From assembly GCA_027491415.1 (NCBI GenBank), contig JAOZFH010000020.1:1-40147 (forward strand): DNA of 40,147 nt, in the 5' to 3' direction. Source of the stretch: Thermoproteota archaeon (GTDB lineage Archaea; Korarchaeota; Korarchaeia; Korarchaeales; Korarchaeaceae). The position numbers and the translations under genes were made by a program. Shown one piece after another: positions 29,356-29,485 of this stretch (positions within the stretch are counted from its first letter, which is position 1; each line of letters begins with the position of its first letter). The notes below the pieces were generated by a model. That model did no database searches, had not been told where the DNA came from, and saw nothing but the letters and a program-made list of their open reading frames with translations.

Positions 29356-29485
29356 GTGGAGAGGAAGTACGTCCCTCCGGCCCTCATGTCCATTAATGGA
29401 GGAGAAGGCGAAGACGGTCGTGATAGTGGCCCTGCTGGTCTGGCTCTGGGTCAAGGTCTTCGACCCCAAGGCGGCGGGAGTCTGA
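29356..29485 (+). pseudogene. RiPP precursor peptide A5, split by one extra base (real or assembly error)
   Basis: MERKYVPPALMSI, then one extra base at ATTAATG (about 29395), then MEEKAKTVVIVALLVWLWVKVFDPKAAGV*; GAGGTGAGG RBS. Confidence 0.75.

Follow-up and report, generated by a model that had tools for sequence, protein, structure and literature searches.

The DNA studied here is a stretch of 40,147 nucleotides from a Korarchaeota archaeon (assembly GCA_027491415.1, contig JAOZFH010000020.1), which we call the window. Our subject is a cluster of genes in the window that appears to encode a peptide that is made on the ribosome and modified after its translation (RiPP). It has five small precursor genes (A1 to A5) next to two radical S-adenosylmethionine enzymes (rSAM1 and rSAM2). 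A preliminary description of this DNA had pointed out that A5 carries a motif like that of darobactin and that the gene is split by one base. We think it likely that this is an unnamed kind of radical-SAM RiPP cluster in which A5 is a genuine precursor gene, that both A5 and rSAM1 are broken in this record, and that the cluster is probably inactive. The window comes from a genome of 1.78 Mb in 63 contigs that is 96% complete, and the genome's partial small-subunit ribosomal RNA is archaeal (RF01959 was the winner of the clan comparison).

The gene cluster

The features of the cluster are as follows.

25142..28665, + strand: two pairs of an ABC (ATP-binding cassette) ATPase and an ABC-2 permease, for export or immunity (Pfam ABC_tran and ABC2_membrane families)
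28675..28692: perfect palindrome of 18 bp, TTGTAGTAGCTACTACAA, within the AT-rich gap that precedes A1 (checked by script)
28744..28875, + strand: precursor A1, an open reading frame (ORF) with a ribosome-binding site; intact relatives P0126 and P0142
28896..29018, + strand: precursor A2, with the C-terminus WLWLWVY
29045..29173, + strand: precursor A3, which contains WVYVWVWAT
29189..29332, + strand: precursor A4; its allele P0151 differs by one residue
29356..29394, + strand: leader of A5 in frame 1, with a GTG start, VERKYVPPALMSI
29395..29396, + strand: site of the extra base in A5; one of the two A is missing in intact alleles
29396..29485, + strand: core of A5 in frame 2, stop included
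29441..29461, + strand: codons for W-L-W-V-K-V-F, whose first W is the family-invariant Trp of I-x5-W
29505..30581, + strand: first piece of rSAM1 in frame 0, with a PqqD-like RiPP recognition element (RRE) and the radical SAM core, CNLRCLHC (Pfam)
30540..30611, + strand: region of the -1 frame break in rSAM1, with a G5 run at 30567-30571
30611..30934, + strand: second piece of rSAM1 in frame 2, a SPASM domain with nine Cys including C-x2-C-x4-C-x3-C (Pfam SPASM, 3.5e-11)
30936..31478, + strand: GNAT acetyltransferase with a GTG start (Pfam; start by script)
31475..32560, + strand: rSAM2, with a SPASM-like fold; auxiliary-cluster Cys are lacking, and a fourth Cys (C98), ahead of GGEP, is conserved
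32538..32882, + strand: stand-alone PqqD-like peptide chaperone (RRE; Pfam)
32879..34267, + strand: TldD/PmbA-family peptidase (Pfam PmbA_TldD_3rd, 2e-34)
34266..35606, + strand: second TldD/PmbA-family peptidase, with no ATG, GTG or TTG in the open frame before 34467

A1 to A4 are intact and can be aligned with each other. Their leaders have the pattern Y-x-P-P-x-[LM]-[LM], with a Gly 15-16 residues past the Tyr, and their cores are hydrophobic, free of Cys, and share one invariant Trp. A GGAGGTG-like ribosome-binding site precedes each of the five leader starts, including that of A5.

A5 and its intact alleles

Judged by its features, A5 is a genuine fifth precursor gene and more than a chance resemblance: it has a GGAGGTG-type ribosome-binding site, the Y-x-x-P leader of the family, and the family's I-x5-W unit. 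Frame 1 from the GTG at 29356 reads VERKYVPPALMSINGGEGEDG..., while frame 2 supplies ...MEEKAKTVVIVALLVWLWVKVFDPKAAGV, with its stop codon at 29483-29485. A profile search with the window's peptides, the A5 core, and one bacterial relative yielded 13 proteins from 1567 candidates. Among the matches was a 42-amino-acid relative of A5, P0147, whose cluster at 90% has three members, one of them P0149. P0149 is an intact A5 allele of 42 amino acids from another public assembly (on a contig of 2190 nt), and its sequence is MERKYVPPALMSIMEEKAKTVVIVALLVWLWVKVFDPKAAGV. Apart from the start residue, P0149 is the window's frame-1 leader joined to its frame-2 core: tblastn places residues 1-13 in frame 1 (29356-29394) and residues 13-42 in frame 2 (29393-29482). 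The residues ...SIME... of three intact alleles (P0149, P0147, and P0150) correspond to ATT AAT GGA in the window. Because P0149 equals the two pieces joined, the window has one extra A (29395 or 29396) within ATTAATG (29392-29398). So the preliminary description had the coordinates and strings of A5 right, and its claim that an extra base at ATTAATG separates the leader from the core is borne out. Because A5 is 5-7 residues short between the leader and the Trp, we also considered a break after ...GEDG as a 3n+2 deletion; the intact alleles rule this out.

As recorded, ribosomes that start at the GTG at 29356 would make an out-of-frame product of 84 amino acids, which ends at 29610 and overlaps the start of rSAM1, so the A5 core would not be made. 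Could the split be functional, either as a programmed +1 frameshift or, as the preliminary description had proposed, because a leaderless core is translated separately from the ATG at 29396? That ATG lies exactly where the frame-2 reading begins. But no ribosome-binding site precedes it, whereas one is present at all five leader starts, so translation of a leaderless core is unlikely. Nor did we see by eye a known slippery pattern at TCC ATT AAT GGA, and the RRE could not recognize a core without its leader. Because the three intact alleles show a single continuous frame, we take that to be the normal state of A5, which also counts against a functional split. We find a functional split scarcely credible.

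A family of Cys-free peptides with a conserved I-x5-W unit

We compared 17 peptides, which represent only about six independent lineages: 7 are of the A1-A4 type, 3 are intact A5 alleles, and 7 are bacterial. All 17 have the Y-x-x-P leader and an I-x5-W unit, and none contains Cys. No Pfam family matched these peptides, and neither they nor the enzymes of the cluster reached any NCBIfam cutoff. In all 7 of the bacterial peptides, I-x5-W occurs twice in tandem (AIGAVVLW then VIGAVFGW), and these peptides end 2-6 residues past the invariant Trp of the last unit.

The darobactin-like motif is distributed quite differently. W-x-W-x-K-x-F occurs in 3 of the 17 peptides, all of which are A5 alleles (the window copy has it as well), and in none of the 7 bacterial or the 7 A1-A4-type peptides. 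Even W-x-W is limited to A2, A3, A5, and one bacterial peptide. In all, 14 of the 17 peptides lack W-x-W-x-K-x-F. On this alignment, the W-x-W-x-K-x-F tail of A5 is a paralog-specific C-terminal extension from the invariant Trp, rather than a sign of darobactin maturation.

A split maturase, rSAM1

The Pfam matches of rSAM1 are to PqqD (2e-9), Radical_SAM (1.1e-30), and SPASM (3.5e-11), with the SPASM part in another frame. A -1 shift lies between the radical SAM part (frame 0, stop at 30581) and the SPASM part (frame 2, ATG at 30611). Both frames are open across 30482-30581, beside the G5 run, and GGGAGG lies 8 nt upstream of the ATG at 30611. The NCBIfam model for MftC aligns by its positions 8-206 to the first piece and by its positions 238-332 to the second, and each of the seven homologs with at least 87% coverage of the query is a single protein, 461-511 amino acids long. 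Because the pieces match consecutive parts of SPASM-family models and the homologs are single proteins, we conclude that rSAM1 is one split gene.

Which kind of enzyme is it? With its RRE, its CNLRCLHC, its nine-Cys SPASM domain, and the small precursors next to it, rSAM1 belongs to the general class of RRE-dependent rSAM-SPASM maturases. Within that class it reaches no NCBIfam family cutoff. The best matches are all far below, with the heme-type families AhbC/D and NirJ as the nearest, followed by MftC, StsB, and PqqE. For example, the MftC model (TIGR03962) gives 132-136 bits against a cutoff of 265, which leaves rSAM1 outside the mycofactocin family. By sequence, the solved structures closest to rSAM1 are those of BlsE, SkfB, and PqqE, and the ESM Atlas returned only generic PqqD/rSAM clusters. 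A predicted complex between the RRE (residues 1-125 of rSAM1) and the A5 family scored 0.15, as compared to a mark of 0.32.

We did not find the system in relatives from the genome's own family: in a search with rSAM1, none of the 40 other genomes had a match that extends beyond the core (the best has 44% identity, E 2e-48, and begins at query residue 138). In scans with the rSAM1 alignment, which were dominated by generic rSAM-SPASM (heme-type) genes, the N-terminal RRE was covered in 1 of the 80 loci kept from genome contigs (L019) and in 0 of the 80 kept from metagenome contigs. The precursor profile matched none of 35 genomes of the host's family.

Shortly past the precursor genes, the 5' part of rSAM1 contains a run of seven T (29602-29608), and the frame-1 read-through of A5 ends here. 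Oligo-T stretches can end archaeal transcripts, and this one could lower the enzyme transcripts relative to the precursor transcripts.

The likeness to darobactin

The core of the darobactin precursor DarA is W49NWSKSFQEI58, which comes after a leader of 48 residues and before a short follower, and DarE alone makes both the Trp-Trp ether and the Trp-Lys C-C link (as given in the relevant parts of PMC9055067). What the preliminary description had stated of darobactin (WNWSKSF, the W-W and W-K links, DarE) agrees with those parts of the paper. Its account of our peptides is correct as well: W-L-W-V-K-V-F is encoded at 29441-29461 and is present in 3 of 3 intact alleles, A2 ends in WLWLWVY, and A3 holds WVYVWVW. 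From these it had suggested that the SPASM enzyme may form three-residue cyclophanes, as an alternative to epimerization. In full, rSAM1 would link Trp to Trp and Trp to Lys within W-L-W-V-K-V-F of A5 and would join the aromatic-x-aromatic pairs of A2 and A3.

At the level of the enzyme class, this is reasonable, given the RRE, the CNLRCLHC, and the Cys-rich SPASM domain; the architecture is common to DarE-type enzymes and other cross-linkers. The specific link to darobactin or to three-residue cyclophanes is not supported, as no family cutoff is reached. Triceptide maturases are of the XyeB, GrrM, or FxsB type, and triceptide systems have repeated aromatic-x-x motifs. None of the darobactin, dynobactin, and triceptide families was among the best 25 of the 70 families listed for the radical SAM piece. 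For the SPASM piece, with 15 families listed, only DynA appeared (39.8 bits), and DarE was absent from the list. The DynA model (NF041298) gives 44.9 bits for the radical SAM piece and 36.6 for the SPASM piece, against a cutoff of 450. This is no better than paralogs do: rSAM2 scores 46.9 bits and an unrelated paralog from the same genome scores 44.8. Judged by the DynA model and the family lists, rSAM1 is not a member of the DarE/DynA family. The CNLRCLHC of rSAM1 does resemble the CNLRCTYC of DarE, but the resemblance is generic; also, one daropeptide cluster encodes an N-acetyltransferase (this and the DarE motif are from the portions of PMC9055067 on these clusters), and there is a GNAT gene here.

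W.W.K.F occurs once in the 2,777,015 residues of the genome's six-frame ORFs of at least 30 amino acids, whereas W.W occurs 1471 times. The motif begins at the invariant Trp, and the 3 intact alleles and the window copy all have it unaltered, although they differ on either side of it. However, the A5 alleles are 90-93% identical, so its retention in all of them says little. We estimate, without having computed it, that a likeness at four positions has no significance on its own: this is a Trp-rich family, and many RiPP motifs could be matched post hoc. And although A5 fits the daropeptide core pattern, Trp-x-Trp (or Phe)-x-Lys (or Arg), positions 2, 4, and 6 are L, V, and V rather than the N, S, and S of darobactin, and the motif is conserved in just those 3 of 17 peptides. 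Intact A5 has 42 amino acids in total, with a Y-x-x-P leader and 13 residues past the first Trp; its leader is short compared to the 48 residues reported for DarA in the same portions of PMC9055067, and it is not a long-leader precursor of the DarA kind. Finally, because most of the family lacks the motif and the bacterial peptides are almost without a tail, the conserved enzyme must act elsewhere than on W-x-W-x-K-x-F. On these sequences, the darobactin or cyclophane reading is unsupported, and we consider such maturation very improbable. The observation made in the preliminary description is confirmed and its interpretation is partly supported. The useful result on A5 is a negative one: the likeness to darobactin is one paralog's tail and not a property of the system.

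Decay or assembly fault

As a background for frame breaks, we took a genome of the same genus and, with tblastn, compared 273 long ORFs in 340 kb of it to the window's genome. An ortholog-level match was found for 251 of the 273 (median identity 85%; 86,858 aligned residues, or about 260 kb). Just 3 of the 251 orthologs had adjacent alignments in different frames, which gives an upper bound of about 1 break per 87 kb. (These candidates are at about 2989-3002 of C58, about 3909-3944 of C32, by a C7 run at about 3920, and about 44630-44790 of C32.) In the 6.86 kb of the cluster, 0.079 breaks are expected and two are observed; under a Poisson model, at least two would occur with a probability of 0.003, a post hoc figure that assumes uniform error. 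In the rest of the window, 21 of 29 other ORFs have Pfam matches and none is visibly split. Because the background is low and there are two breaks in 6.9 kb, frame breaks are concentrated in the cluster, which suggests either local decay or a local assembly fault.

If both breaks are sequencing or assembly artifacts of this metagenome-assembled genome, then the organism's cluster is intact and working. On both sides of the A5 break, the encoded protein is identical to the intact P0149, so the change is either very young or not real. The rSAM1 break lies beside a G5/GGG/CCC stretch, and the region is represented in sister assemblies by very short contigs (891-2190 nt), which is what strain differences and difficult assembly would lead one to expect. 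On the other hand, artifacts do not sit well with the low background or with the lack of split genes among the 21 Pfam-annotated ORFs elsewhere in the window, and the A5 site has no long homopolymer. The second TldD/PmbA gene also shows a possible defect: its frame is open and its homology starts at about 34290, yet no canonical start comes before 34467. The start may have been lost, the start codon may be an unusual one, or the protein may be shortened at its N-terminus. Furthermore, in the A1-like peptides P0127-P0130 from other, related assemblies, the hydrophobic core passes into a charged tail of unrelated sequence. Given these fusions, the locus does decay or rearrange in nature, and in some relatives it has been rearranged or lost. 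By tblastn, no part of the window's genome encodes the P0127 tail, so a simple deletion junction cannot be demonstrated for it.

We think that there is a substantial chance, albeit well short of even, that both breaks are artifacts, and that real recent decay in this population is somewhat more likely. Either way, because the A5 core is not made and rSAM1 is broken, the cluster as recorded is probably inactive.

P0126 and P0147 each have a longest contig of 1194 nt; the A5 is 93% identical to P0149, and the A1 is 73-81% identical to the A1 of the window. We found no variants of A2-A4 from this lineage. If P0126 and P0147 share a contig, then this lineage may have fewer precursors, with A5 better conserved.

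A homologous cassette in gut Lachnospiraceae

The single locus from the genome-contig scan that covers the RRE is from Claveliimonas monacensis, a member of the Lachnospiraceae (L019, 5932-12134). It contains a gene for an RRE-rSAM-SPASM protein, two further rSAM genes, and genes for PqqD, GNAT, and ABC proteins. The rSAM1-like protein is 32% identical over residues 17-326; rSAM2 is 34% identical to L019:8356-9429 (E 2e-60); the stand-alone PqqD is 26% identical to its counterpart (E 8e-12); and both ABC-2 permeases are homologous to two Claveliimonas permeases (31%, E 7e-27; 24%, E 3e-6). There is a precursor of 42 amino acids, MTKREYVSPASLRLSSVDNEYGAAIGAVVLWVIGAVFGWLVT (L183, 1501-1629), which lies 6.6 kb downstream of the rSAM gene, after the second ABC pair. 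It is at the far 3' end, and its core consists of two tandem copies of an 8-residue unit, both with I-x5-W. Judged by gene content and homology, the cassette is conserved across domains, in the archaeon and in Lachnospiraceae.

At E 1e-60 or better, the Claveliimonas rSAM was found in none of 200 other genomes of its family. Related peptides occur in other Lachnospiraceae, and one of them, a "hypothetical protein" of Eubacterium ramulus, is on at least 1000 contigs. The bacterial counterpart is thus frequent in Lachnospiraceae of the human gut, which offers a culturable route to the chemistry. In our view the cluster family itself, with its I-x5-W signature and its occurrence in gut Lachnospiraceae, is a more interesting lead than the motif in A5, and the conserved and sometimes doubled unit is a concrete site to test.

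rSAM2 and epimerization

The rSAM2 family has 140 representatives at E 1e-30 or better. In an alignment of 42 sequences, C98 before GGEP is present in 37, and 29 have just 0-1 Cys in the last 130 residues. The model of rSAM2 has a predicted local distance difference test (pLDDT) score of 92.3. A fold search with it returned generic SPASM/twitch maturases (SkfB, SuiB, BlsE, and PqqE), with no epimerase among the matches listed, and there was also none among the 5 PDB sequence matches. The epimerase model TIGR04103 gives rSAM2 91.3 bits against a cutoff of 725. Proteusin epimerases lack the auxiliary cluster, epimerases use a Cys as the hydrogen donor, and Val and Ile are targets of EpeE and OspD (according to the passages of PMC13012085 on these enzymes).

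Might these peptides be ribosomal counterparts of gramicidin-type channels? In that case rSAM2, or perhaps rSAM1, would be an epimerase that puts D-residues in the aliphatic, Trp-rich core, and the tail would anchor the peptide at the membrane interface. The cores have no Cys, are aliphatic, and finish with Trp and aliphatic residues in alternation, perhaps much as in gramicidin A. The lack of auxiliary-cluster Cys in the rSAM2 family and the extra Cys before GGEP are as in the epimerases covered by those passages of PMC13012085, and the GNAT could cap the N-terminus. But rSAM2 falls far short of the epimerase family, no epimerase is in the rows of the fold search that were listed, and a hydrophobic core of 21-23 residues could span the membrane as an ordinary helix, without any D-residue. 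We view this as a tentative proposal, and an unlikely one, though it is compatible with our explanation of the cluster.

Neighboring features

The palindrome at 28675-28692 is directly followed by a TATA-like stretch, ahead of A1; these are a possible operator and promoter of the precursor operon. The GTG start of the GNAT gene (30936) sits two bases past the SPASM stop. The N-terminus of the GNAT (30936-30990) includes L-S-Y-P-P-S, which resembles the Y-x-P-P of the precursor leaders, probably by chance. The same window also encodes a Cas6 endoribonuclease, a Cas_APE2256 (Csx1-like) protein, and pairs of HepT/HEPN and nucleotidyltransferase genes, which together are listed as follows.

5144-5974 (-), 37583-38542 (-), 18911-20750 (+): Cas6, Cas_APE2256 and HepT-HEPN items

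A proposed pathway

If the cluster worked, the PqqD/RRE domains would bind the Y-x-x-P-A-x-L leader, and the target of rSAM1 would be the I-x5-W in the hydrophobic core, which has no Cys, with the invariant Ile and Trp as the obvious handles. Thioethers are excluded, as no substrate has a Cys, and our preferred guess is a C-C side-chain link that involves the Trp. Clark and Seyedsayamdost are said to have described a RiPP with an Ile-Trp cross-link made by a radical SAM enzyme (J Am Chem Soc, 2022), which would set a precedent for such chemistry on an I...W unit. Next, rSAM2 with its PqqD might add a second modification, possibly epimerization by way of the conserved extra Cys. From the gene content and general knowledge, TldD/E would then cut off the leader, the GNAT would acetylate the new N-terminus, and the ABC systems would export the product or protect against it.

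Several points weigh against our interpretation of the cluster. Besides the small number of independent peptide lineages and the post hoc nature of the Poisson figure, the case for darobactin-like maturation has some substance, namely the uniqueness and retention of the motif, its start at the invariant Trp, and the shared architecture of the enzymes. Real mutation and assembly error both fit the sequence. The archaeal and bacterial GNATs could not be aligned, no TldD/E was seen in the available stretch of the bacterial cluster, and the fold search with rSAM2 did not point to an epimerase. Also, the I-x5-W cross-link, the epimerization, and the acetylation are all inferred.

A bolder idea is that this is a new class of RiPPs, of an archaeon and of gut Lachnospiraceae, in which an undescribed modification of I-x5-W (for instance, an Ile-Trp macrocycle) is made by an RRE-rSAM-SPASM enzyme on a membrane-spanning, Cys-free peptide, with or without D-residues from rSAM2. 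The products would be membrane-active, gramicidin-like peptides of ribosomal origin, and the tail of A5 would add a Trp/Lys cross-link of the darobactin kind. We regard this as speculative and rather unlikely. To our knowledge, few archaeal RiPPs have been characterized. We found no description of this cluster in the literature that we searched, and the parts of PMC10878394 and PMC10288494 that we consulted contain nothing on this peptide family.

Comparison with known systems

The daropeptides share with this cluster the spacing W-x-W-x-K-x-F, which here is that of A5, as well as a maturase of the rSAM-SPASM kind and genes for ABC transporters, as far as the cited portions of the darobactin paper go. 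In contrast to those systems, rSAM1 is outside the DynA family, the leader of A5 is short and of the RRE type, the intervening residues in A5 are hydrophobic, 14 of 17 relatives lack the motif, and the host is an archaeon.

The RRE-dependent rSAM-SPASM systems (PqqE/PqqD, MftC/MftB, SkfB, and SuiB) are similar in having a PqqD-type RRE, CxxxCxxC, and SPASM, and they include the nearest matches by sequence and fold. However, the scores are far under the cutoffs, and the substrates here lack Cys, a Glu/Tyr pair, and a conserved C-terminal Val-Tyr. Mycofactocin's precursor MftA ends in Gly-Val-Tyr, whereas A2 is the only one of our peptides that ends in VY.

The peptide epimerases (PoyD/OspD of the proteusins; EpeE/YydG of the epipeptides) resemble rSAM2 in two ways: rSAM2 lacks auxiliary-cluster Cys, as in the proteusin type, and it has an extra conserved Cys. 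The substrates here are also rich in Val and Ile. Unlike those systems, there is no match at the level of family or fold among those listed, and the leader is not of the NHLP or Nif11 type.

The closest likeness is to the Lachnospiraceae cassette. There are differences: one precursor was seen there as compared to five here, there are three rSAM genes instead of two, I-x5-W is doubled with almost no tail past the last Trp, and identities to the archaeal proteins are only 24-37%. Nevertheless, both cassettes pair a precursor that has a Y-x-x-P-A-x-L leader and a hydrophobic, I-x5-W-bearing core free of Cys with genes for an RRE-rSAM-SPASM enzyme, an rSAM enzyme lacking auxiliary-cluster Cys, a PqqD protein that stands alone, a GNAT, and two ABC-2 systems.

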